From: an uncultured Gammaproteobacteria bacterium
GTDB taxonomy: Bacteria; Patescibacteriota; Patescibacteriia; UBA11705; JABHMO01
Direction of reading: 5' to 3'
Assembly: GCA_964590105.1 (NCBI GenBank)
Contig: CAZPYM010000001.1
Span: 302,172-366,171, forward strand
DNA length: 64,000 bases
Shown here: positions 3,247 to 38,591 of the stretch, in pieces
How positions within the stretch are numbered: the stretch's first letter is position 1
How the letters are laid out: each line of letters opens with the position of its first letter
The notes under the pieces: model-generated
What the model was told of the DNA's origin: nothing
Databases searched by the model: none
The model's input: only the letters and a program-made list of their open reading frames with translations
Made by a program: the position numbers and the translations under genes

Positions 3247-4365
3247 ATGCGGTCATATCCTAGATATTATTATATGAAGCTGAGTTTATTTGATTACAAA
3301 CTACCTGAAAGGCTCATAGCCCAGGAGCCGGCCTCACCGCGAGACCATTCACGGTTATTGGTTTACAACAAAAAAACCGGTGATATAGTCCACGACAGAT
3401 TTTTTAATTTGCCAAAATACTTAAATCCCGGCGATGTTATGGTTTTTAATAACTCAAAAGTCTTTCCCGCGAGACTACTCGGAAACAAGGAAACCGGAGG
3501 CAAAGCCGAGGCCCTTCTCTTAAGAAAGCTAAAGAGCGGGCAATGGGAAGCTCTCCTCGGCACCAGGCACCCAAAAGTCGGCCTAAAACTGAGCTTTAAC
3601 AAGGGTTTAACCGCCAAAGTAATTGGTACGCCGACTGCCAAAACATGGCTCTTACAATTCAATTTCTCCGGTCCGGCTTTTTATGAAATTTTAGACAAGA
3701 TTGGTCAAGTGCCAACCCCTCCTTATATAGACGTAAAAAATCAACTCTTCCACTCGCATTCACTCGCTAAGAGTGACAAAAAGATAAGAAATCAGTATCA
3801 AACAATTTACGCAAAAAAACTTGGATCTGCCGCCGCACCGACTGCGGGCCTGCACTTCACAAATCGATTGTTAAAAAAGATTCGAGACAGGGGAGTGCAG
3901 ACAGAGTTTGTAACCCTTCACGTTGGACTCGGGACATTTGATCCGGTTAATACAGAAAATATTGAAGAATACAAAATTCATCAGGAATGGGTGAGTGTTG
4001 ATAAGCAGACAATTAAACGCCTGATCAAAGCAAAGCAAGTCGGAAAAAGAATTATCGCCGTCGGAACAACTTCAGTGCGAACGCTTGAAACTTTATTTTC
4101 AACTTCGCCTATTTGCGATATTCGCGATTCGCGTCAATCGCATATAAATTCGTGTCATTCGTATTATACTGACATTTTCATCCACCCTGGCTATAAATTT
4201 AAATTTATCAATGCCATAATCACTAATTTTCATTTGCCAAAATCAAGTTTAATAATGCTTGTTTCAGCTTTTATCGGACGCAAGAAAACGCTCGAATTAT
4301 ATAACAAGTGCATTAAATTAAAATATAGATTTTTCAGTTTTGGCGACGCTATGTTTTTGCAATAA
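3247..4365 (+). CDS. queA: S-adenosylmethionine:tRNA ribosyltransferase-isomerase
   Basis: The N-terminus MKLSLFDYKLPERLIAQEPASPRDHSRLLV is the canonical QueA start, and the length (372 aa) is typical. Confidence 0.9.
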   Translation: MRSYPRYYYMKLSLFDYKLPERLIAQEPASPRDHSRLLVYNKKTGDIVHDRFFNLPKYLNPGDVMVFNNSKVFPARLLGNKETGGKAEALLLRKLKSGQWEALLGTRHPKVGLKLSFNKGLTAKVIGTPTAKTWLLQFNFSGPAFYEILDKIGQVPTPPYIDVKNQLFHSHSLAKSDKKIRNQYQTIYAKKLGSAAAPTAGLHFTNRLLKKIRDRGVQTEFVTLHVGLGTFDPVNTENIEEYKIHQEWVSVDKQTIKRLIKAKQVGKRIIAVGTTSVRTLETLFSTSPICDIRDSRQSHINSCHSYYTDIFIHPGYKFKFINAIITNFHLPKSSLIMLVSAFIGRKKTLELYNKCIKLKYRFFSFGDAMFLQ

Positions 4366-5033: not shown

Positions 5034-5393
5034 ATGCCACTAGTAAAAACATTTGATGAAATCTTGGCGTGGCAAAAAGGTCATGCTTTAGCGTTGGAAA
5101 TTTATAGTATAACAAAAACTTTTCCACCCGAAGAAAAATTCCGCTTAGTTGATCAAATGTGTCGCGCTGTTATTTCTTTTCCATCAAATATCGCTGAAGG
5201 ATTTAAAAGAAAAGGAAAAAATGATTCTCTCCGTTTTTATAACATTGCGCAAGCATCTTTAGAAGAATTAAAATACCAGCTTTTACTTGCAAAGGATTTA
5301 AAATATATAACAAACGAAAAATATAAAAATTTACTGTTGTTATCTGAAGAATGCGGCAAACTTCTAAATGGCTGGGCCAAATCACAAAAATAG
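5034..5393 (+). CDS. four-helix-bundle protein (family often encoded in 23S rRNA intervening sequences, TIGR02436-like)
   Basis: 119 aa. KGHALALEIYSITKTFPPEEKFRLVDQMCRAVISFPSNIAEGFKRKGKND matches this family's signature. Confidence 0.65.
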   Translation: MPLVKTFDEILAWQKGHALALEIYSITKTFPPEEKFRLVDQMCRAVISFPSNIAEGFKRKGKNDSLRFYNIAQASLEELKYQLLLAKDLKYITNEKYKNLLLLSEECGKLLNGWAKSQK

Positions 5394-5441: not shown

Positions 5442-6383
5442 ATGAAATCGAATTACATCAAAAAACTCCAAACAGGGGACCAGCTAGTTAACGAACAATT
5501 CGCAATAAAAAATGTTCGCTATGGCAGAACACAGGCGGGAAAAGATTATATTGATTTATCATTAAGTGACAGAACAGGTGAAATTGATGGAAAAATCTGG
5601 GAAACAAATATTCAAAACTGCGCTGAAATTCAAACTGGCGACGTGGTCGAGCTTTCCGGAAAAGTTGAAGAATTTCGGGATAAGCAACAAATCAATATTG
5701 GATTTCTGCAAAAAGCCGTCAACTTTGACCTGAGTGACCTCCTGCCAAAAAGTGACAAAGATCAAAACGCGCTCTGGCAAACTGTGCAAGCAAACGTTGA
5801 TCAGATTGAAAACAAATATCTAAAAAAACTTTTGCTGAAATTTTTTGGCACTGAGGATTTTACTGAAAAATTCAAAGTTTCGCCCGGCGCCGAAAGGATT
5901 CATCACGCTTATCTTGGCGGACTAATGGAACATACCGCGGAGATGCTTGATCTGGCGAACACTCTTCTGAATAATTATCCTGAACTTGACCGGGATTTAC
6001 TAATCTGCGGCGTGTTATTGCATGATTGCGGCAAAACGCAGGAATTAGCTGTCAATCATGCGATTTATCGGACGACCGAAGGATCATTGATCGGCCATAT
6101 TTCTCTTGGCTCTTTCATGGTCGCAAAAGCGATTGACTCAATAAAAGACTTTCCGGTCGAACTTCGCGCAAAAGTTATAAACATGATCCTCGGTCATCAT
6201 GAAAAACTGGAATTCGGCTCGCCGATCAAACCCATGACCCGCGAAGCTTTTGCTCTGGCCCATATTGATAATTTATCTGCCAAAGTCAACACTGCCAATA
6301 AAGTTGTAAAAGATTTGGAAAACACTGAACAGGAATTCAGCGACAAAAACTATGCCCTCGACACAAAATTATATTTAAATTAA
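5442..6383 (+). CDS. OB-fold plus HD-domain phosphohydrolase, YhaM-like 3'-5' exonuclease
   Basis: N-terminal OB-fold-like region (GEIDGKIWE...VVELSGKVEEFRDKQQINI) followed by the HD motif (HHAYLGGLMEHTAEM...LLHDCGK). There is no SD sequence; the leader is a CACTTA repeat. Confidence 0.7.
   Translation: MKSNYIKKLQTGDQLVNEQFAIKNVRYGRTQAGKDYIDLSLSDRTGEIDGKIWETNIQNCAEIQTGDVVELSGKVEEFRDKQQINIGFLQKAVNFDLSDLLPKSDKDQNALWQTVQANVDQIENKYLKKLLLKFFGTEDFTEKFKVSPGAERIHHAYLGGLMEHTAEMLDLANTLLNNYPELDRDLLICGVLLHDCGKTQELAVNHAIYRTTEGSLIGHISLGSFMVAKAIDSIKDFPVELRAKVINMILGHHEKLEFGSPIKPMTREAFALAHIDNLSAKVNTANKVVKDLENTEQEFSDKNYALDTKLYLN
6318..6383 (+). repeat. left copy of a ~66-bp imperfect direct repeat (3' end of the YhaM-like gene)
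   Basis: aaaacactgaacaggaattcagcgacaaaaactatgccctcgacacaaaattatatttaaattaa, compared with the copy at 6746-6810 (~5 mismatches out of 66). Confidence 0.7.
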
Positions 6384-6388
6384 ACAAC

Positions 6389-6706
6389 ATGAAAAAAGTA
6401 TTTTTTATTGTTACTGGAATCGCAAGTCTGTCGGTCATACCAAACCTTTATGTTTTTCTCTCAACTTTATTTTTCATATTTCCTAAAGTTGGAAGGCCTA
6501 ATGACTTTTCTGACGGCTTATTCATTGCCTTAGAAATACTTTTTTCTTTGGTTCCGATATTGTTTTTACTTATTGGCCTGCTAAAAAACAAAAACAACAC
6601 ACTCTCAGGTCTGTTCATGACTGTTGCAATTCTAATAAACATACCAATTTTACTAATTTCACTATATATAGCCGCTGCTCTAATTTTTGGCGCCGGCCCC
6701 CAATAA
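6389..6706 (+). CDS. small hydrophobic membrane protein (105 aa), bracketed by the 66-bp direct repeats
   Basis: Three predicted TM helices (FFIVTGIASLSVIPNLYVFLSTLFFIF, LFIALEILFSLVPILFLLIGLL, LFMTVAILINIPILLISLYIAAALIFGAG). Confidence 0.45.
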   Translation: MKKVFFIVTGIASLSVIPNLYVFLSTLFFIFPKVGRPNDFSDGLFIALEILFSLVPILFLLIGLLKNKNNTLSGLFMTVAILINIPILLISLYIAAALIFGAGPQ

Positions 6707-6745
6707 TTAGCATCCAGTAACTAAAACGGTTAATTTTAATCGCAC

Positions 6746-6810
6746 AAAACACTGAGCAGGAATATAGCGACAAAAACTTTGCTCTCGACACAAAATTATA
6801 TTTAAATTAA
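6746..6810 (+). repeat. right copy of the ~66-bp imperfect direct repeat
   Basis: aaaacactgagcaggaatatagcgacaaaaactttgctctcgacacaaaattatatttaaattaa. Confidence 0.7.
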
Positions 6811-6903
6811 TTGAATAGACATTATTCATAAAACATAAAGCATAGAACATCCGTTAGTCATTTGTAATTTCGGTAACTATTATTTGTAATTTTCAAATAT
6901 TTT

Positions 6904-8112
6904 ATGCCCGCTGTGAACAACAACAATAAAATCAACATCGTCATGTTCAACATGGGTACTTTTTTTGATTGGGATCACGGCATTGTCAATCGCAACTGGA
7001 ACATTATGAATGCGCTGGCAAAAGAAGATCGAATTGACAAAATTGTCGGCGTTGATTTTCTGCCCATTGGCTGGAAAAAAGCAGCTGCTCATTATCTAAA
7101 AAACATTTTATTTGAAATCAAAAGCGCAAAAATTATTTACGGCGACCTGATGAGCGCCTGCTATCAGAGAACGGATAAAATTTTTGCCTATACAACCGTT
7201 GAATCTGTATATTCAATGAAAAAAGTCGCCAAGGAATTAAGGCGCGTGGAAAAAATTCTTAATCTGAAAAATATTGTTTTCTGGTCCTACAATCCGATGT
7301 TTGTTGAATTTATCGACAAACTCAATGAAAAAATTTTTGTTTTTGACACAGTTGACAATTGGGCCGAGCATCCTGGATACACAAAGATGATGAGAAAAAG
7401 TCGATTACTGAAAAATTATCAGACAATCGCGGAAAAAGCTGATTTAATTTTCACGGTTTCAGAAGAACTCAAGGATTTTTACAAGCAAATGAACAGAACA
7501 AAAGACGTGCACTGGATTCCAAACGGAGTCGACTATGATCATTTTAATGATCCTGAAAAAATTAATCGTGACAATGAACTAAGTGAATTTGATAAACCAA
7601 TTATCGGCTATCTTGGCACGATTGAAGACCGGATTGACTTTGATCTGCTGACAAAGATTGCCCGCGCGCACCGCGGCAAAGAACTGGTTTTGTGCGGACC
7701 GGTCTGGCCGGTCGTGGAAAAAGAATTAAATAAAAAAATAAAAGATTTAAAAAACGTACATCTTCTTGGACGAATCAAATTCGATGACGCACCGAGCTAT
7801 GTAAATAAATTTGACGTAGCCATTATCCCTCACAAAACAAATGCCTTTGTTAATACCATGAACCCGATGAAAATGTATGACTATCTGGCCTGTGGGAAAC
7901 CGATTGTCGCAACCAAAGGCGCCGGCATTGAAATGTTCAAGGATCATATTTATATAACGAATGACAGTGATAAATTTGTTGATCATATCGACCAAGCGCT
8001 CAAAGAAGACTCGCCGGAAAAACAAACCGCGCGTCGAAATGCAGTACGAGAACATTCCTGGAAAGCTCGAGCAGACAAAATGACCGAACTTCTGTTCGAA
8101 AAACTAAAATAA
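6904..8112 (+). CDS. glycosyltransferase family 1 (GT4-type)
   Basis: 402 aa. The C-terminal region (GRIKFDDAPSYVNKFDVAIIPHK...MKMYDYLACGKPIVATKGAG) is typical of the group-1 glycosyltransferase domain. Confidence 0.75.
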   Translation: MPAVNNNNKINIVMFNMGTFFDWDHGIVNRNWNIMNALAKEDRIDKIVGVDFLPIGWKKAAAHYLKNILFEIKSAKIIYGDLMSACYQRTDKIFAYTTVESVYSMKKVAKELRRVEKILNLKNIVFWSYNPMFVEFIDKLNEKIFVFDTVDNWAEHPGYTKMMRKSRLLKNYQTIAEKADLIFTVSEELKDFYKQMNRTKDVHWIPNGVDYDHFNDPEKINRDNELSEFDKPIIGYLGTIEDRIDFDLLTKIARAHRGKELVLCGPVWPVVEKELNKKIKDLKNVHLLGRIKFDDAPSYVNKFDVAIIPHKTNAFVNTMNPMKMYDYLACGKPIVATKGAGIEMFKDHIYITNDSDKFVDHIDQALKEDSPEKQTARRNAVREHSWKARADKMTELLFEKLK

Positions 8113-28383: not shown

Positions 28384-31300
28384 TTATTTTACCACTGCCA
28401 TCCAGTCAGCTTCGGTTGAAGGAAACTTGCCGTTCGCAGTTTTGAAATCCTTGACTGCTTGCAATCTTTCAACCGATGTTTTGGCCTTGCTGGCCGCTGT
28501 ACTGCCGTATGAGATGAAAGTTACAACATTCCAGCCCTCTGCATCCGGAGATTGGCCGGCGAGAGCGATATAATCATTTACAGCTGTGATTTCATTTTTC
28601 AGGTCTCTGTCAGCACTCACTGGCAAAGCTGGCACTGCGTTATCTTTTGGCGCTTCTACAACTGGCGCTGCTGGTACTGTCTCAACTGGCGCTGGTGCCG
28701 GAGCTGTCATAGAAACACCTGCATAAGCAATTCCGCGCAATACAGACCACATGAAACCGGTATTTGGCATTTGCTTGAATGATTTAGAGAAGGTTGCTAA
28801 AGCAGTCTTTTCCTTAGCCAATTCACGCGCTTCAGGTCGCAGATAGTAGGCGACAGAGTGGATAAACTTTTCTTCAGCCGGTTTGCTAAAATCAACCAAT
28901 CGGCCGAACACCTTTACAAAAGCTTTCAAAGCTTCTGCCTCGCGTCCGATTATTCTAGCGGGAGTTGTTCCTTCAGCCATCTTGGCCACGCTCTCCCAAT
29001 CAGAATCAGTACTGGGGATATGATTGTAAACAGCTTTATAATCTTCAAGCAATCCCACTCTTTCACGTTCCGCCATTTTCTTGACTTTATCAGTTGTTCC
29101 ATAAGTCAGGAAATCTACAACTCGCCATTCATTGGCCGTAGCCGGACTCTTGCCGACAAGTTTAGCATAATCTTTTACGCCTTGAATTTCCTTCTTAAGT
29201 TCTCTTGCCGCCGGTTTTACCGGCACCACATTTGTCAGGGTAACGACTTCTGAAGCAACTTCCTTGGAAACTTCTTTAACTTCTGTTTTGACAACCGTAG
29301 TTATTTCTTCCACTGTTGTCGTGACTGCTTCATCCGTGGTCGTTGTGGTAGTTGTTGTCGGTTCTATTATCGTCGTTGTAGTGGTTGTCGCGGCCGCTCC
29401 GCCGGTGGTATCAACCGCGCGCCGTGTTGTTGTAGCGGATGCCGCGACTAGAGGCGGATGAGTGATTGAAACCGAGGTCAAGTGAGTAATCTTTCCCATG
29501 CAATAATTTTCAGTCGTGTTGCAGGTTTGATTATCAAGCGGCATAAACGAGTCAGTCGTATCATCGTAATATGACAATGTGAGCAAAGATTCATCGGTTA
29601 CGCCCGCGCTTGTTAATTCAGCGGCCGTATAGTGGAGAATAATCTCAGCGCCTTCTCCGTTCAATTGGTTCACATCCTCACCTCCGGCTTTGGCTGTAAT
29701 TTCAACTTCAGTCCCGACTAAAGGCAACGTTGTATCGAGCGCCGGCAAGTCCACCTGCTGAAAGGTCAACGTGCCGCTAGAATTCTGCCCACCGATAACT
29801 CCGGTGCCGGCGCTAATTTCAAGACCGGTGTTATTTGCGTCGTTTACTACTACACCGCTCGTTGGAACAATCGTTCTGCTATCAACGCTTTTTATATCTG
29901 TCGGATCAGATGTCAACGTGATGTCCTTGTTGCTGAGCGAACTACCACTAACCGCGACAGTGGCCGATCGCGTTGTTTCAGCGTGCAATGGGCCATCCGC
30001 AATCACTGACCATGTGCCATCTGTTACTGATAACTGGTAGCTACCATCTTGCTGAATTGATCCCTTGGCTTTTGCTCCAGTAGTCGCCTCGGTGGCGTAG
30101 ACAAATCCGCCAAGATTCATAGGCGTTGATCCGTCAGATTCGTAAATCGTGCCTGAAATTGAATTGCCTTTTTCAACCAAATCATTGTCAATCTGAATAT
30201 CTTCGTCTGTGGTATTGCCATCAAAATCAAAATTTACATTTCCCGTAACCTCCAAGTTTGAATATTTTGCCGGCGTGCCGTAATCCTTGTGTTCGGCTTT
30301 AATGCTGTATGTGCCTTCTTTGACACTCATTGAATAGTCGCCGCTGGCGTCCGTGGTTGTTTGCTTTACCAATCCCGTTGTTTCATTAATAAGCAAAACC
30401 GCGGCATTGGCTATGGGATTATTGGAATTGTCAAGAACTGTGCCTAAAACCGTGCGCATTGTCTGCGCCGAAAGATCAACAGTGGTACTTTGATTTGAAG
30501 TTGACAAATCAATTGTTGAAGACGGCGAAAAATCTCCCATGCCGTCAACAAACACCATCAATCTATATGTTCCGGCAGGAACGCTGATAGTCTGGCTCTG
30601 GCTCAAATCGGGAAGCGGCATGCCTCGGCGCACAGCTCCACGGCTGTTGGTCGTGGCTGACCCGGCTATTTCCTTTACTTCTATAAACCCGCGCATATTT
30701 GAAGTTCCGCCGGTAAAAGCGACTGTCAATGTTTTCAAACTTGCCAAATCATAACTGATATTCACGGTTTGATTGCCTCCGTTTACAGTAACATTTTGTC
30801 CTAGTTCTCCGTAATCAGGCGACCACATTGACACTCTGTATGTACCGTTGCCGGCTTTGATTGAATAAGAACCGTCATTGGCCGTTGATTCATTGCGATG
30901 GTATCCTCCGCTCGGCCAGTCATTAACCGTATCCCAGGCTTCTACCATTATCGGAACACTACCCTGTGCTGTACCGCCGATTGAAACGGAGCCGGAAATG
31001 GTGTAGCAGGTGGAAGATGTCGGCTGAAGATTTTCAGTCGGCTTATTCGCGCCCGAAACTGTAATAGCCTTGGTAATTGTGCCACAAGTATCAGTTCCCG
31101 ATGGCATTTGCGCCGTCACTGTCCAAGTGCCGTCGCCAACATTCAGCATATAGTCGCCGTCCGAATCCGACATTGTTTGCGCAGACTGGTGCGTCGTTGT
31201 TTCGTTTGCCATTACGCTGGTGTAGTTGAGAGGATTGCCGCTCAAATCCATTACTTTTCCTGAAATCATGTAGTCGGCTTTATACATTTTGATTAAGAAC

Positions 31301-34300
31301 GGAGCGGCGGTAGTAACATAATCGCCTTCAAGATTAACATCGCAAGTGGTATTGCCGTCGGAAACCCCAACCGTATTATCCTTTACTGCTACCGACCTAA
31401 ACGGAGCCTCACCGATTCCGGGTTTATGAGCTCCGATTTCATAATTTCCATTGGCCGCGACTTTGAGAACAAAACTGCCGTCCGCGAGGGATTGCGTATG
31501 AGAGCCCATGCCACCGAAACCCATTGGCTGGCTGGCCCAAATTTCAACATTTTGCATTACATTATACACTTTCGCGCCAGAAGAAAAAGCTTGATTCATG
31601 CCGTTTACCAATTGAACTGTCGCGCCGCTGATTGACAATATTTTATCATTTTTTGTGTTCGTGCCGTCAGTCACAACTATTGAATCATTGGCATTAAATC
31701 CCGTGCCACTCGCCAAAGTCAGGCTGGTCGCGCTCGAAGTGTAATTCGCGCCGAGCGTAGTTTCCTTTGACACAACGCATCCGAGTATTTCTTTACTAGC
31801 GCTATTGATGTTAAAACTTAATTCAGTAATTGTTGCATTCGTATCATTGCGCTTAATAATTGGAGTTCCGCCAATACCGCTGACTTCAACCTGAACATTT
31901 GTCGGCGGCATCCAATCAGGCATCGGAGGCGGTCCCATCATCGGCCCCTTTGGCATAGCCGGCCCAATGCCAACCATATATATGCCGTTGGAAGGGAAGT
32001 ATAGAGTGGAACTGTTATTAGTGACTGCGCCGGTCAAAGTAGTGGTATTTACCGCGAACGAATTAGGCCCGCCCGCGAAAATATCAAGATCTTCTCCGTC
32101 AGCGCTGAATGTCCCGGACACCTTGACTGTCAATGATGCTGAATTGGACGCTGAAAATTTAGCGAAGGTTAGCGCTCTCGTCAAAGTCTTTGTTCCCGAA
32201 TTCCAGTTTTCGCCCGAACCGGGCACACAAATTGGTTCCGGATTCATCTGTCCGCTGTATTTATTTGCGCCAAGAGTAACCGTCGGCTCGCTAAAAATAT
32301 TATAACAGCCATCCGGCAAATTTGACCAAGTCTGCGTTCCCGTGCCATTGGCAATGTTAACTGTCGCGTCCAAAGGACCGGTCATGGGAGATCCCATCAT
32401 CAATTGAAAAGTGCCGGTGCCGCTTTCAGCCGCGATTGTCGCCGTGATATTATTTGCTCCGGCCGCGTTGATAAAGAAAGGCATTGAAGTCATGCTGGAC
32501 ACGTTCGTGCCGTCCGCTTTGTACGCTTTCATGTCAACGGTGTAGCCATTGGAATTGAAATCCTGAACTTTTGTCGGATTGACGATGTTTTTCACTTCAA
32601 AATGAAAGTAATCAGGATCGCCGGTTTGTCCGCCGTTCGTATTCAGCCACAGAGTCATTGTCTGACCTGAAACCGTCACGCCGTCGCTCGCCGCGCCGCC
32701 CTTTGTCGCGGCGCCCGCGCCGTCGTCAGCAACTCCCGAAGTCTTGAATTTGACTATTGACGGACCGCTCATATTCAGATCATTTTTATTGGGATTATAC
32801 GGATCCGGAATCGCCGAAACAATGTTAACGCCTTTTGGAAATGTCAATTTAATATATGCTCCGTCGTCAAGCGCATTGGCTGATTTGCCCGATGGCGGAA
32901 TAGGGAAGTCAATCATGTATGTGGTCGTAGCGCCGGCCATCATATTCATGGGCATGGCTCCGACTCCTCCCATCATCATGGCGTCTTTTTCTGAAAAACC
33001 TCCAAATCCTGTAGGCGCGCCCGTCATCATGGCGCCGCCCATGGCCGAAGGACCGGAAAGTCCGCCGCAAGCGGGTCCGATCATACCGCCTGTTTTCGCC
33101 TCATCGCGCAAAACTCCCTTGGCGGAATTAGCCGTAGCGTCAATTGGATTATTCGACAGATCCATAACATTTGAAACAGTAATAATAAATTGATCTGTTT
33201 CTTTTGTCGCACCGGTGAAGGATAGACCCTTAATTTTGACGGTGTTTGTTTCATAATCATAATCAAACGACACGCCGGCCGCTCCAAGATTTTCAGTACT
33301 ACCGGTGCCGTCGGCGCCAAAAGTCAATGCGTAGTTGCCCGACTTCAGTACGCTCCCTGTCCAAAGCGAAGCATTGGACGAGGCGTCACTTTGCTTCAAC
33401 GCGCTCATTGGTCTTGAGAATGTCACCGCGCACTGGTATCCGTCGCAATTCGCGACTTCAACTCTGGGCTTGGTTGTGTCAAATGTAGACGTCATGGTAA
33501 ACGAGCGCGTCAAAGTGGTTGCTCCGCTCGGATTACCATACAAGTCTTTTATTCCACTTGTGCCGCCAAGAGTAATAGTCAAGGTATATTTCATACCCGG
33601 CGTCAAGCCGGTTGTCGGGATTACCTTGATACTCTGGCTCATTGAATCATATTTTACTACGGCCGGAATTGTTGACGTTCCGGTTTTCAATGTAACGGTG
33701 GCCGTGTTAACATTACCCGGTTCCAGCGATTCATTGAAACCAATATCCACGAAGCCGAAATCCAATGGCACTCCCGTGGCATTATTGTCCGGCCAACTGC
33801 CATTAATGCCGGGAGCAGTTGAATCAGTAACGTCCGCGACTGTAAAATTGACCATAAATTGATTGGCTCCGGGATCGTTTGGATTGCCAAGCGTTACACC
33901 CGAAGACGCTCGGATTCCCGCCTTTACCCTTATTTCATACTCGCCGGCCATTAAATTTGAAGACAAATTCATTATGGCGAAAAGCTTATCGTTCGAGGTT
34001 GTCACTGAACTTATATAAGTACTGGTAACATCTGTAAAAGAATTACCGCTTTTTTGAAATAACTTGAATGTGCCCGTGTTAACGCTACTTGAATCAAGCG
34101 ATTCGCTGAATTCAAACATCATTTTTGACAAATTTTTTGATACACTCCACGCGCCCGACGACGGCTGCGCGCCTTTCACAAAGAAAGGAGAATAGTCTCC
34201 GCCGCTCCATTGGCCTGTAGTCGTGTTAAAATTATCCGCCATTGTCATATAATCAGCATTATCGGTCATAGATCCAAAATTACCGGCATCATAATATGCG

Positions 34301-37056
34301 GCATCTTCCGTAAAGCCAAATCCGCTGGAGCCGCTAAAATTCATATCGGTTGACTGCGTAGTGAAAGTGAACGAATGTCCTCCTCCCGGCCTGCCGCCCT
34401 GAACTGAATTGCCGGCCATATCTATAACAGCAGGAAGGATTTCCACAATATATTGCGTGTTCTTAACCAAAGGCTCCACCATATCAATTACCGCCACCGG
34501 GGTACTGACAGATGCACCAGGCGCGTAGAAAGTGGCGCCGCGATTGCTGGCTCCGAGACCGGTGTCAATTGTTACGGCGTAATTAGTAACGGGTTCAACT
34601 TGTCCCGTAAAGTTATTCATTTTTTTCAACAATATATTTGACGTAGTCAGTTTTCCCACGTTCATTGGTTTATTAAATCTAATAAATATAGGTGCTCTGT
34701 CAATCACTATGTCGATCGGCGCGCTGTTCATGCCGTCCGATGGAGTAGTTTCTATAACCATAGGCGCGCTGGAATCTCCGCCATGAGCCCCTACGCCGCT
34801 ATCTAGACAAAACTGCCAGCCGGTTGACTGCGGATTATTACTGCTGACGCCAACTCCCCAAATTGTACTTTCATGATAACCTCCCGCATTCGCGCTCAAA
34901 TTCCAAACGCCGTCAAACACGCCGTTTAGCGTGAATGTTCCGGCTTGATCGCTGACAATGGAGGTAACGGCGCTAATGCCAGTACCTTCAATTCTAACGG
35001 TTGCGCCGTCAATGCCAGTCACGCAATCGCTTTGGTATACGCGGCCGGAAATTTTTCTAGCTCCGCTGGTCGTTGAGACATTAATATGATATGGCATGGC
35101 TTGGGCCAGCACTTCCGTATTTGCCACGGGATCCGCGGCCGAATATCCTTCTTCGCTCATGCCGTCAACCGCCTTAATATAATAATCTATTCCTGCCGCG
35201 GTTACCGCTGACGCAGGTATTGTGAATATTGTACTTGAACCTGAAGAACTTCCGGAAACACAGCTTCCCGGCCAACCGGCTGTGCCGGCCTTGTAGCATA
35301 GTGTAGTAGTAATCTGTTGCGAAGTGCTTTCAACATCATATATTTCAGCCAGAAGTTTAATTTCAGTTGAAACCACAGCCGTGGAAATCGGGCTGTGCAT
35401 AACATGAGGTGGAGTGTTTAAGTGCGTTTCGCCGCCCAGTTGAAAAACCTCTACGCCGCTAGTTGATTTTTGAGGATCTGACAAAGTGCGCGAAACAAAA
35501 TCATACATATTATCATTGCTATTATAACCATTTCCGATTGCCACGTCTGAAGTAACCATAGTCGCACTTGTTGATGAATATACCGCTTTTCGTTCAATAC
35601 TGCCGTTTGCCAAGGGCGCAGGGTTGAACGGACTGGTTTGATAAACCCTGACCCCATGTCCGACGCCCACGATATCCCTTACCGTATTATTTTCATCAAT
35701 TAAAAATATTGTATTACCGGAATCCAAATCTACTCCTGTAAACGCAGCGTCAGCACTCAGGCCTTGCCCATCAACGCTCTGGTCAAAACTATTAGCGTCA
35801 TTAGCCAATAAATAATATCCGCCTTGCGCCATAGTAGTCCCGCCTGCGATCGTAGCCAAAACAGTGTATGTATTGTCAACTCCTTCTATACCAGGCAGAT
35901 CTGTCAAGACGGCAACTTTCCAGCCGGCGATGGATTGCGGGCTCAATCCAATATTGTAAAGCTCAATGAATTCATCCGTTGCAGCGGCGCCGGCCAATTG
36001 AATTTCAGAAATCAGAATGCTGGTGTTCGGCCACATCCAAAACAAAGGAGCCGGATCGCTATACGGCATGCCGTTGGCAACGCTTTTTGGCGCAATCGAG
36101 GGATTGGTGCTTATTTGCAGGCTATCGGTCATAGTCATTGAAATCCTGGCGCCGGCATGCGCGACCACGGAAACTCTGCTAGGATCACTGCCATCGCGAG
36201 TCGCCCTGATTATTGACTGATTATCGTTTGCACCTGTCATTAAAGTATACCGAGCGCAACTTCCGGGGGTGACTTCTTCGTCGCATTCCACCGAATCCGC
36301 GGTTACTGGCATATTAAAATCAATTATTAAATCTCTATATGACCCATAATACAAGCCATCCACTCTAGGCGGCGACATATAAGTGTCTCCGTCTCCGCCG
36401 CCGCCGGCGCTATTTATCGTATCCGTGCTAACCTGCGTGATCGTCGGGGAAGTGCCGCTGGTAACAACCGTGCCGCTCGCGCCGCCTAAGAAAGTAAATC
36501 GAAATGATTTTCCGGAGGGCGGAGTGTCGTGCATTTTCATGTGAAGAAAATAATTGCCGCTACCCGCTGAATATGAAGTTGGCAATGTGTCATCAACAAC
36601 GTCAAGAGTAACATCATAAGTGCCGTCGCCATTGTTTGTCCATGAAGGCTTTGTTTCCCAAACAAGAACGCTGTCTCCGGAGCCGGGATCCATCCAGCCA
36701 TTACCATTACCGTCTTTATAAATGCATAGTCCCTGATCATCACTGCCGGCCGCCGCCGCTTCATTAAACGGCGCCAATACCAAAGCCGGATCAGGAGTGC
36801 CATAGAGACCGTCAAAACGAACTTTAATTGATTTTAGCTGCTCGCCGGCAGTACCGGTAATCTTCAACGCGGCAACACTGCTCATGAAACCGCCATATGC
36901 ATTCATGTTTGGCGGAATCATAAACTCCGAAGTTACTGTTACACCAGCTTGAGCCGGAAATAGGGGAGTGAGCACGCCGGCCAATCCCATGGCCCAGACT
37001 ATGGTGGTCATGGCGATAAAGCCAGTAAATAATTTATTTTTTGCGATTTTCATCAT
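28384..37056 (-). CDS. giant secreted surface protein (2890 aa) with Ig-like/carboxypeptidase-regulatory-like beta domains, Met/Gly/Pro-rich low-complexity segments, a poly-Thr linker and two C-terminal ~75-aa tandem repeats
   Basis: A single uninterrupted ORF. Signal peptide MMKIAKNKLFTGFIAMTTIVWAMGLAGVL. Many G/T/S/N-rich beta-type repeats (e.g. GRVYQSDCVTGIDGATVRIEGTG). Low-complexity segments GPACGGLSGPSAMGGAMMTGAPTGFGG...MMMGGVGAMPMNMMAGA and MPKGPMMGPPPMPDWMPP, and a TTTTTTIIEPTTTTTTTT linker. The C-terminal repeats are (V/N)KDYAKLVGKSPATANEWRVVDFLTYG and VNDYIALAGQSPDAEGWNVVTFISYG. Confidence 0.85.
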   Translation of the reverse strand: MMKIAKNKLFTGFIAMTTIVWAMGLAGVLTPLFPAQAGVTVTSEFMIPPNMNAYGGFMSSVAALKITGTAGEQLKSIKVRFDGLYGTPDPALVLAPFNEAAAAGSDDQGLCIYKDGNGNGWMDPGSGDSVLVWETKPSWTNNGDGTYDVTLDVVDDTLPTSYSAGSGNYFLHMKMHDTPPSGKSFRFTFLGGASGTVVTSGTSPTITQVSTDTINSAGGGGDGDTYMSPPRVDGLYYGSYRDLIIDFNMPVTADSVECDEEVTPGSCARYTLMTGANDNQSIIRATRDGSDPSRVSVVAHAGARISMTMTDSLQISTNPSIAPKSVANGMPYSDPAPLFWMWPNTSILISEIQLAGAAATDEFIELYNIGLSPQSIAGWKVAVLTDLPGIEGVDNTYTVLATIAGGTTMAQGGYYLLANDANSFDQSVDGQGLSADAAFTGVDLDSGNTIFLIDENNTVRDIVGVGHGVRVYQTSPFNPAPLANGSIERKAVYSSTSATMVTSDVAIGNGYNSNDNMYDFVSRTLSDPQKSTSGVEVFQLGGETHLNTPPHVMHSPISTAVVSTEIKLLAEIYDVESTSQQITTTLCYKAGTAGWPGSCVSGSSSGSSTIFTIPASAVTAAGIDYYIKAVDGMSEEGYSAADPVANTEVLAQAMPYHINVSTTSGARKISGRVYQSDCVTGIDGATVRIEGTGISAVTSIVSDQAGTFTLNGVFDGVWNLSANAGGYHESTIWGVGVSSNNPQSTGWQFCLDSGVGAHGGDSSAPMVIETTPSDGMNSAPIDIVIDRAPIFIRFNKPMNVGKLTTSNILLKKMNNFTGQVEPVTNYAVTIDTGLGASNRGATFYAPGASVSTPVAVIDMVEPLVKNTQYIVEILPAVIDMAGNSVQGGRPGGGHSFTFTTQSTDMNFSGSSGFGFTEDAAYYDAGNFGSMTDNADYMTMADNFNTTTGQWSGGDYSPFFVKGAQPSSGAWSVSKNLSKMMFEFSESLDSSSVNTGTFKLFQKSGNSFTDVTSTYISSVTTSNDKLFAIMNLSSNLMAGEYEIRVKAGIRASSGVTLGNPNDPGANQFMVNFTVADVTDSTAPGINGSWPDNNATGVPLDFGFVDIGFNESLEPGNVNTATVTLKTGTSTIPAVVKYDSMSQSIKVIPTTGLTPGMKYTLTITLGGTSGIKDLYGNPSGATTLTRSFTMTSTFDTTKPRVEVANCDGYQCAVTFSRPMSALKQSDASSNASLWTGSVLKSGNYALTFGADGTGSTENLGAAGVSFDYDYETNTVKIKGLSFTGATKETDQFIITVSNVMDLSNNPIDATANSAKGVLRDEAKTGGMIGPACGGLSGPSAMGGAMMTGAPTGFGGFSEKDAMMMGGVGAMPMNMMAGATTTYMIDFPIPPSGKSANALDDGAYIKLTFPKGVNIVSAIPDPYNPNKNDLNMSGPSIVKFKTSGVADDGAGAATKGGAASDGVTVSGQTMTLWLNTNGGQTGDPDYFHFEVKNIVNPTKVQDFNSNGYTVDMKAYKADGTNVSSMTSMPFFINAAGANNITATIAAESGTGTFQLMMGSPMTGPLDATVNIANGTGTQTWSNLPDGCYNIFSEPTVTLGANKYSGQMNPEPICVPGSGENWNSGTKTLTRALTFAKFSASNSASLTVKVSGTFSADGEDLDIFAGGPNSFAVNTTTLTGAVTNNSSTLYFPSNGIYMVGIGPAMPKGPMMGPPPMPDWMPPTNVQVEVSGIGGTPIIKRNDTNATITELSFNINSASKEILGCVVSKETTLGANYTSSATSLTLASGTGFNANDSIVVTDGTNTKNDKILSISGATVQLVNGMNQAFSSGAKVYNVMQNVEIWASQPMGFGGMGSHTQSLADGSFVLKVAANGNYEIGAHKPGIGEAPFRSVAVKDNTVGVSDGNTTCDVNLEGDYVTTAAPFLIKMYKADYMISGKVMDLSGNPLNYTSVMANETTTHQSAQTMSDSDGDYMLNVGDGTWTVTAQMPSGTDTCGTITKAITVSGANKPTENLQPTSSTCYTISGSVSIGGTAQGSVPIMVEAWDTVNDWPSGGYHRNESTANDGSYSIKAGNGTYRVSMWSPDYGELGQNVTVNGGNQTVNISYDLASLKTLTVAFTGGTSNMRGFIEVKEIAGSATTNSRGAVRRGMPLPDLSQSQTISVPAGTYRLMVFVDGMGDFSPSSTIDLSTSNQSTTVDLSAQTMRTVLGTVLDNSNNPIANAAVLLINETTGLVKQTTTDASGDYSMSVKEGTYSIKAEHKDYGTPAKYSNLEVTGNVNFDFDGNTTDEDIQIDNDLVEKGNSISGTIYESDGSTPMNLGGFVYATEATTGAKAKGSIQQDGSYQLSVTDGTWSVIADGPLHAETTRSATVAVSGSSLSNKDITLTSDPTDIKSVDSRTIVPTSGVVVNDANNTGLEISAGTGVIGGQNSSGTLTFQQVDLPALDTTLPLVGTEVEITAKAGGEDVNQLNGEGAEIILHYTAAELTSAGVTDESLLTLSYYDDTTDSFMPLDNQTCNTTENYCMGKITHLTSVSITHPPLVAASATTTRRAVDTTGGAAATTTTTTIIEPTTTTTTTTDEAVTTTVEEITTVVKTEVKEVSKEVASEVVTLTNVVPVKPAARELKKEIQGVKDYAKLVGKSPATANEWRVVDFLTYGTTDKVKKMAERERVGLLEDYKAVYNHIPSTDSDWESVAKMAEGTTPARIIGREAEALKAFVKVFGRLVDFSKPAEEKFIHSVAYYLRPEARELAKEKTALATFSKSFKQMPNTGFMWSVLRGIAYAGVSMTAPAPAPVETVPAAPVVEAPKDNAVPALPVSADRDLKNEITAVNDYIALAGQSPDAEGWNVVTFISYGSTAASKAKTSVERLQAVKDFKTANGKFPSTEADWMAVVK

Positions 37057-37613: not shown

Positions 37614-38591
37614 CTAATCATTGTCGCTATGACATTTTTCATAAACATCGCGCAATTTTTTATTGGTCACATGCGTGTAAATTTGGGTAGTGGAAATATC
37701 TTCATGGCCCAGAAATTCCTGCACCAGGCGTAAATCAACGCCCTTGTTCAGCAAATCCGTGGCAAATGAATGGCGCAGGGTATGCGGCGTTGTATTAAGG
37801 GGCAATCCGGCAAGCTTGACATACTTTTTTACGATTCTTTCAACTGAACGAGAAGTTAGTCTGCGCGAACCGATTTCTGACGCAGTAGGGGAGTAATTTA
37901 TGAATAAGGCTTTATCAACATCATTTCGATTATCTAGATAATTCCTAATTGCCGAAAGCGCCCGCAAAGAAAAATATATTGTTCTGGTTTTGCTTCCCTT
38001 GCCCACGATATTTAATTCCAAAACTTGTCTAAAATTTCTAATATTAAAGTCATCGCGATTTAATTTCACAACTTCTGAGACACGGAGTCCTGTTGAAAAT
38101 AATGTTTCAAGAATCGCTTTATTGCGAAGCGAATTTAAATCTAATTTTACTGCGCAATCAAGTAATTTTTTTACTTTTTCAAGAGTAAGAAAATGCACGG
38201 ACGGTTTTTTTGTTTGTTTTGCAAGCTGGATCTTGCTGGCGGGCAGGGCCGTGATATCGCGCACCGCAAAATATTCCAATAGCCCGCGCAGAGCGATTAA
38301 ATAAATATTTTGCGTTCTTTTTGTCAAACTTTGTTTTGTTTTTGCTGATAAAGTTTTGCGCGACAAAAAAATTCTGTATTTCCAGATTATTTCGCTGGTG
38401 AGCTGATGGGGGAGCAAATCTTGCATTTTATTTTGGATAAGCCAACGCTTGAAGCGATCTAAACATCGGGAATAATTTTCCTGCGTTTGTTTTGCCAAGC
38501 CTTTTTCTACGTCAACATAATCAAGAAAATCATTGATTTGTTTGAGAATGGGAAGTTGAGAGTTGGTGAGCATAAATACAAGAAATAACAA
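37614..38591 (-). CDS. tyrosine recombinase, XerC/XerD family
   Basis: N-terminal SAM-like domain, and the C-terminal catalytic region HTLRHSFATDLLNKGVDLRLVQEFLGHEDISTTQIYTHV (R..H..R..Y). Confidence 0.85.
   Translation of the reverse strand: MLFLVFMLTNSQLPILKQINDFLDYVDVEKGLAKQTQENYSRCLDRFKRWLIQNKMQDLLPHQLTSEIIWKYRIFLSRKTLSAKTKQSLTKRTQNIYLIALRGLLEYFAVRDITALPASKIQLAKQTKKPSVHFLTLEKVKKLLDCAVKLDLNSLRNKAILETLFSTGLRVSEVVKLNRDDFNIRNFRQVLELNIVGKGSKTRTIYFSLRALSAIRNYLDNRNDVDKALFINYSPTASEIGSRRLTSRSVERIVKKYVKLAGLPLNTTPHTLRHSFATDLLNKGVDLRLVQEFLGHEDISTTQIYTHVTNKKLRDVYEKCHSDND

Follow-up and report, generated by a model that had tools for sequence, protein, structure and literature searches.

Why should a housekeeping gene be followed, a few hundred nucleotides downstream, by a second copy of its own last codons? 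This question is raised by a 64,000-nucleotide (nt) stretch of DNA, hereafter the window (assembly GCA_964590105.1, contig CAZPYM010000001.1, positions 302,172 to 366,171 of the forward strand), from an uncultured Patescibacteriota bacterium. Among named relatives, Candidatus Kuenenbacteria and Falkowbacteria are the nearest, and the guanine-plus-cytosine content of the window is low (41%). The gene in question, which encodes a YhaM-like 3'-5' exoribonuclease, is intact (5442..6383, + strand; 313 amino acids [aa]). Its working 3' end, R1 (6319..6383, +), recurs as R2 (6746..6810, +), and the two copies bracket a small membrane-protein gene, the open reading frame (ORF) ORF105 (6389..6706, +). 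Here, we propose that R2 is probably the dead, orphaned 3' end of a second, slightly diverged YhaM-like allele, left behind by a single recombination event between lineages.

The repeat and its two copies

An earlier note, made from the sequence of the window, had described an imperfect direct repeat of ~66 base pairs (bp) with ~5 mismatches, which duplicated the end of the YhaM-like gene ~360 bp downstream. This description proved accurate. A repeat search aligned 6319-6383 with 6746-6810 at 60 of 65 nt (92%), with 5 mismatches and no gaps, which is well clear of the ~75% identity below which the note had been prepared to call the similarity a chance one. The two copies have the same orientation, their starts lie 427 nt apart, and 362 nt separate them. 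The left edge is sharp, since in-register identity is at background just upstream of 6319 and 6746, and the right edge coincides exactly with the TAA stop codon (6383/6810). The last 27 nt of the copies are identical.

The repeat is unique within the window. With a 44-nt degenerate core and up to 3 mismatches allowed, R1 and R2 were the sole sites, and the same core had no match in 100 dinucleotide-preserving shuffles. No other repeat above 72% identity (minimum length, 32 nt) was present in the whole 64 kilobases (kb). The shuffle control and this uniqueness rule out a chance AT-rich similarity. The further copies of the unit for which a search had been suggested were found neither in the 64-kb window nor in viral, phage, and plasmid collections. 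The repeat was also not an assembly artefact, because every population locus spanning 6319-6810 carried both copies; all 22 of the other population loci fetched from ENA, JGI, and Logan, which cover at least 13 sample accessions, matched the window at 100% where they overlapped it. The only inverted pair at the segment (6394-6418/6713-6737) had a complementarity of 72% and did not stand out from the 8 other chance-level pairs in 3.5 kb.

R1 consists of the last 21 codons and the TAA stop codon of the YhaM-like gene and encodes ...NTEQEFSDKNYALDTKLYLN*. The protein contains OB-fold and HD domains (Pfam HD, E 5e-13), and matches the NCBIfam YhaM model along its entire length (E 3.4e-59), with a score below the equivalog cut-off. 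Two solved YhaM structures, 9h3f and 9o7t, match it from end to end. The name YhaM-like is therefore a fair one. The closest homologues of the protein agree with it in length and in the conserved C-terminal tail, and the tail pattern [EDK][FY][ST]x[KR]x[FY]AL[DE]TKLYL[NK] is conserved among YhaM-like homologues, which are mostly from Patescibacteria.

R2 reads (Q)NTEQEYSDKNFALDTKLYLN* in the frame of the gene. It lacks a start codon and is preceded, 9 codons upstream, by an in-frame stop codon (6718-6720); thus, R2 is a fragment rather than a gene. The region around it, 6700-6905, gave no Rfam match, no terminator-like site, and no RNA structure beyond that of shuffled controls (z = +0.92), and a functional RNA or terminator there was rejected on these nulls. 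In the best explanation, R2 would not be expressed as protein and would have no function.

Divergence of the tails and the junction in relatives

The five differences between R1 and R2 respect the codons of the gene. From R1 to R2, GAA>GAG and GCC>GCT are synonymous, TTC>TAT replaces F with Y through two bases, and TAT>TTT replaces Y with F. Members of the family have either F or Y at each of these aromatic positions, and R2 thus encodes a fully acceptable tail. By the Nei-Gojobori method, there were 3 synonymous differences at ~10 sites (proportion of synonymous differences [pS], 0.30) and 2 non-synonymous differences at ~50 sites (proportion of non-synonymous differences [pN], 0.04), a synonymous excess with a Fisher p of 0.029. 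A similar pattern was obtained when real genes of the window were compared with those of its sister contig, L014 (pS, 0.21; ratio of non-synonymous to synonymous divergence [dN/dS], 0.04-0.22). When random mutation was simulated, the probability that all 4-5 changes would be synonymous or accepted in the family was 0.013-0.047.

The states of the variable codons also bear on the age of R2. R2 retains TTT (F) and GCT, both of which are present in outgroups. The derived TAT (Y) is common to the window's R1 and to L014, and GCC occurs only in the window, where it makes the sole difference between R1 and L014 (1/65 nt, synonymous GCC/GCT). Because R2 has the outgroup states while R1 and L014 share the derived TAT, R2 would have branched off before the window and L014 split. 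For a neutral relic present since that split, ~8 substitutions are expected, and R2 has changed less (P[<=3] ~0.05). A paralogue elsewhere in the same genome was ruled out as the source of R2, as a protein search of a database that includes this genome's 564-kb NCBI contig gave nothing between 72% and 100% identity. These comparisons suggest that R1 and R2 acquired their differences while both were working gene ends, in different lineages, and that they were joined later; the evidence for such divergence is modest but concordant.

We then compared the junction between the YhaM-like gene and its downstream neighbour in related genomes. This neighbour, GT1 (6904..8112, +), has Pfam and NCBIfam matches as a TuaH-like group-1 glycosyltransferase and is conserved in position, the backbone QueA-AMMECR1-YhaM-GT1-GT2-p147-Wzy being common to the clade. 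In two lineages, the YhaM-like gene directly precedes GT1, with 3 nt between them in L015 (YhaM-like protein 72% identical to that of the window) and 10 nt in L033/L034 (62%). Other relatives have other genes in the junction. L016/L018 (Ca. Kuenenbacteria bin.190; 67%) carry a gene of 98 aa, ORF98, and a 97-aa membrane-protein gene on the opposite strand (L018 4950..5640). L017 (64%) carries genes of 152 and 354 aa (5992..7538), and L035/L036 (62%) carry a 182-aa MgtE-domain gene (L035 4734..5282). Neither a second tail copy nor a tail relic was found in L015, L016, L017, L018, L033, or L035, and no relative was found with both copies inside conserved coding sequence. Judging from these contigs, genes have been gained and lost repeatedly at this junction in the clade. 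The proposal that it marks a recombination-prone place for small genes is supported to this extent, namely that the junction is variable among relatives; nothing supports the mobile cassette that was proposed along with it.

The closest comparison is with L014 (ENA ERZ27247124, contig k141_783147), which is 92.6% identical to the window over 475 nt and has exactly the same junction of YhaM tail, ACAAC, and ORF105. L014 can be aligned to the window as far as 6714 and diverges 8 nt past the ORF105 stop codon. About 24 nt past this divergence, it reaches a motif that lies 174 nt past the ORF105 stop codon in the window, and it therefore seems to be without ~140-150 nt, R2 included. Thus, L014 seems to carry ORF105 without R2. 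In the window, the spacer between ORF105 and R2 (6707..6745, +) shares only its first 8 nt with L014; the rest, 6715-6745, matched nothing significantly, either in other parts of the window or in relatives, and may be filler or donor sequence of undetected origin. In the spacer between R2 and GT1 (6811..6903, +), the GT1-proximal part (~6858-6892) is probably common with L014. Bases 491-503 of L014 match either 6880-6892 (13/13) or 6860-6870, and there is otherwise no similarity in 6811..6903. The sequence directly following R2 matches the 5' end of GT1 in L015 over 9 nt (GAATAGACA); a leftover GT1 start was entertained as a possible reason and set aside, because the GT1 N-terminus of L015 is atypical for the family.

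A scan of genome contigs yielded only one relative, Ca. Kuenenbacteria bin.190. Scans of metagenome contigs with a degenerate 45-mer and an exact 27-mer came back empty; even the window's own sequence was missed, and this lineage is thus absent from that collection. The GT1 protein search had an E limit of 1e-60, which probably hid short fragments of the L014 lineage.

Between the two tails, the 105-aa hydrophobic ORF that had been noticed was confirmed, with three hydrophobic segments. ORF105 starts 5 nt past the YhaM-like stop codon, and its dN/dS of 0.22 (synonymous divergence [dS], 0.24) against the 90%-identical L014 protein indicates a real gene. It is restricted to few lineages. Its family is tiny, with 4 matches among 1.84 billion representative proteins, and no Pfam or NCBIfam family scored above its cut-off. 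The ORF98 of L016/L018 is a homologue (33% identity by tblastn, 35% by phmmer) and sits in the position of ORF105, 7 nt past the YhaM-like stop codon, without a second tail copy. Because this homologue stands at the same spot without a repeat, ORF105 is probably not a recent cassette. A third homologue, in L031 (99 aa, 40% identical), is flanked by an L28-like ribosomal protein gene and an ABC-transporter operon, and no YhaM-tail sequence is nearby.

Several further observations were made at these loci. On contigs whose DNA is identical to that of the window, two source pipelines had called a 64-aa ORF on the opposite strand and missed ORF105 (L012 2527..2721 [-] and L013 1261..1455 [-], equivalent to 6448..6642 [-] of the window), so the annotation of ORF105 is inconsistent. 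For annotation, we recommend that R2 be marked as a pseudogene fragment and ORF105 as a real gene. In L031, three copies of a ~31-nt TGATTTACSTGATTTWTACRTGATATACTGAA-like motif (3387..4000) occur in intergenic DNA around the small L28-like gene, upstream of the ORF105 homologue; they could be a promoter or regulatory repeat. In L035, a GIY-YIG gene (7166..7462) stands between GT1 and GT2. The GT1 protein itself (6904..8112) is 82% identical to that of Ca. Kuenenbacteria bin.190 (L018 5780..6991), as compared with only 63-73% for QueA, AMMECR1, the YhaM-like protein, and GT2. This excess similarity spans the whole gene and extends to third codon positions (identity of 0.56 versus 0.48); it could reflect an old gene exchange or a rate effect. 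On the other side of the YhaM-like gene, between it and AMMECR1, lies a gene of 119 aa (5034..5393, +) for a bAvd-like/23S-rRNA-intervening-sequence protein. This gene was seen in the window lineage only and was missing at that place in L015, L017, L018, L033, and L035; it is a second lineage-specific insertion adjoining the YhaM-like gene.

Proposed recombination between lineages and its rivals

The explanation that we favor is a recombination between related Patescibacteria lineages differing by ~5-10% at the DNA level. By homology-facilitated illegitimate recombination, a linear DNA that had entered would have paired with its homologue at one end and been joined illegitimately at the other, so that the event left both tail contexts side by side. 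The donor may have carried the 3' part of YhaM together with ORF105 and have been anchored in the YhaM-like gene; the illegitimate junction would then lie 65 nt ahead of the resident stop codon, and the displaced resident tail would be R2. Alternatively, the donor may have carried a YhaM tail followed by the region upstream of GT1, have been anchored in or near GT1, and have been joined just past the resident ORF105. In either version, the working gene would retain an intact tail, R1. The geometry of R2 agrees with such an event: it has the orientation of R1, lies downstream of the intact gene, and has its left edge within coding sequence and its right edge at the stop codon. These edges are expected because the two genomic contexts would share only the gene. 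The origin from another lineage, the mechanism of recombination, and its timing are what we infer from the repeat, its edges, and the comparisons above.

Several points weigh against this explanation. The two versions fit equally well, and either side may be the foreign one. No genome was found with an intact YhaM-like gene ending in R2-type sequence, and the second allele is thus inferred rather than observed. The event would not account for the 31 nt at 6715-6745. The statistics on R1 and R2 draw on 5 differences only, with p values of ~0.01-0.05, and the apparent lack of R2 in L014 is read from a 13-nt match and the final 36 nt of a contig of 511 bp.

One rival is a duplication that arose in place. 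A local error of replication or repair would have placed a copy of the final 65 nt of the gene 427 nt further downstream, or ORF105 would have been inserted with a long duplication, and in both cases R2 would then have drifted neutrally. The copies lie close to each other and share an orientation, the searches gave no donor allele, and with only 5 differences a selection-like pattern can arise by chance at the level of a few percent. However, all of the differences are synonymous or are F/Y swaps at positions that are naturally F/Y variable, and R2 has outgroup-like states that the window's R1 and L014 have lost. A tandem duplication was ruled out because it would have copied ORF105 as well, and only one ORF105 is present. 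The variant with an inserted ORF105 meets a further difficulty if transposition is invoked, since the target duplications of transposons are 2-14 bp long and are identical on insertion. The repeat is far longer than this, its differences are not those of random decay, and the bracketed segment holds ORF105 only, which has no transposase domain. Thus, a transposon target-site duplication was ruled out, and the earlier suggestion of an insertion that duplicated its target was abandoned. Duplication in place, in either form, is in our view rather unlikely.

Site-specific integration at the 3' end of the gene would account for the repeat in another way. ORF105, or a larger island since reduced to it, would have brought a replacement tail, and R1 and R2 would be the left and right attachment sites (attL and attR). 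The YhaM-like gene is restored and intact and ends in a family-typical tail, the 3' blocks of the direct repeats are identical over 27 nt, the site is empty in L015 and L033, and the few homologues of ORF105 occur in more than one context. The search for mobility genes, however, told against it. Between 5 kb upstream and 13 kb downstream of the repeat, no integrase, transposase, or reverse transcriptase was found when Pfam was searched with 33 ORFs of the window, a set that covers every clear ORF of 130 aa or more in 1-20 kb and nearly every one of 180 aa or more in 20-64 kb. The neighbours of the repeat are QueA, AMMECR1, the intervening-sequence protein, two glycosyltransferases, Wzy, Fmt, Def, PriA, and ClpB. 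A single tyrosine recombinase occurs in the window (37614..38591, -); it is Xer-like, lies 31 kb away, and adjoins a giant ORF of 2,890 aa (28384..37056, -). In addition, the unit is single copy, the homologous small gene of L018 occupies the same spot without an attR-like copy, L014 has the exact left junction and seems to lack R2, and the L031 homologue adjoins no YhaM tail. For these reasons, we consider site-specific integration improbable, and the earlier idea of a cassette captured by site-specific recombination did not hold up. An integron gene cassette was likewise ruled out, as 6700-6905 folds no better than shuffled sequence and has no Rfam match, and no integrase is nearby.

A leaner form of the same idea is that the ORF105/ORF98 family is the cargo of a minimal, integrase-less cassette that repeatedly targets the YhaM-like 3' end with a replacement tail and is moved in trans by a putative recombinase, with R1 and R2 again as attL and attR. 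If this were true, recombination between R1 and R2 would switch ORF105 on or off in the population without damage to the ribonuclease (RNase) gene. We consider it very improbable.

The bAvd-like gene at 5034..5393 prompted the question of whether the pair belongs to a diversity-generating retroelement, with R1 as the variable repeat and R2 as the template repeat. Its protein passes the Pfam cut-offs for 23S_rRNA_IVP (E 5e-37) and bAvd (52 bits versus a cut-off of 40), and a repeat at a gene's 3' end with a noncoding copy nearby does resemble a variable/template pair. The mismatches are not adenine specific, however: the bases are G, A, T, T, and T in R2 and A, T, C, A, and C in R1, so that 1 of 5 falls on A with R2 as the template and 2 of 5 with R1 as the template. 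No reverse transcriptase was present among the 33 ORFs searched, the population contigs were all identical and showed no variability in R1, and the 23S_rRNA_IVP family is a stand-alone one. Because the mismatches are not at adenines and a reverse transcriptase is lacking, the retroelement is effectively refuted, and this explanation is almost certainly wrong.

Of the earlier interpretation as a whole, then, what stands is a recombination scar at a variable junction, and what finds no support is the target-site duplication and the mobile or site-specific cassette. If recombination between lineages did form R2, the scar testifies to DNA exchange and illegitimate joining between lineages of uncultured, small-genome, Kuenenbacteria-like Patescibacteria. 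A crossover within R1/R2 would be expected to delete ORF105 and to leave an intact YhaM-like gene. Such excision variants, with a chimeric R1/R2 tail or a GT1 without ORF105 upstream, were not found in the collections searched, either by exact look-ups of both possible chimeric proteins or among all contigs with an exact YhaM-like or GT1 protein, every one of which had the same context. The scar would be a new instance of a known and ordinary kind of event; it reveals no new mobile element or mechanism, and its practical value is modest.

Comparison with known systems

Experiments have documented homology-facilitated illegitimate recombination during natural transformation in Acinetobacter, Streptococcus pneumoniae, and Pseudomonas stutzeri (PMC3240628, and PMC122324 and PMC122325 as cited therein). 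The event proposed here shares with it one homologous anchor, one sharp-edged illegitimate junction, and the integration of short foreign DNA with a small insertion or deletion. Unlike the transformation experiments, the present case is read from a scar in the genome of an uncultured Patescibacteria lineage.

Genomic islands that target the 3' ends of transfer RNA, transfer-messenger RNA, or protein genes and bring a replacement end with them offer a second comparison. There, as here, direct repeats of the end of the target gene bracket a piece of DNA and the target is left intact. The present locus differs from such islands in that an integrase is absent, only 362 nt are bracketed, the unit is single copy, and a relative carries a homologous small gene at the same site without repeats.

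The closest likeness in arrangement is found in rhs, contact-dependent inhibition (CDI), and type VI secretion system (T6SS) loci. Displaced orphan 3' ends of the same geometry occur in T6SS and rhs loci, and the same mechanism has been invoked for them (PMC5361080; Jackson et al. 2009, PMC2935791, as cited therein). As in the effector-immunity orphans of rhs, CDI, and T6SS loci, the order is an intact gene, a small gene downstream of it, and a displaced, promoter-less fragment of the intact gene's 3' end in the same orientation, and the proposed origin is incoming DNA that homology anchored in the conserved part of the gene, with an illegitimate join at its far end. In contrast to those systems, the gene here encodes a housekeeping YhaM-like RNase rather than a polymorphic toxin, ORF105 is not known as an immunity protein, and there is a single relic rather than an array. 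The two tails, moreover, encode almost the same peptide, so the exchange proposed here would have brought no functional swap.

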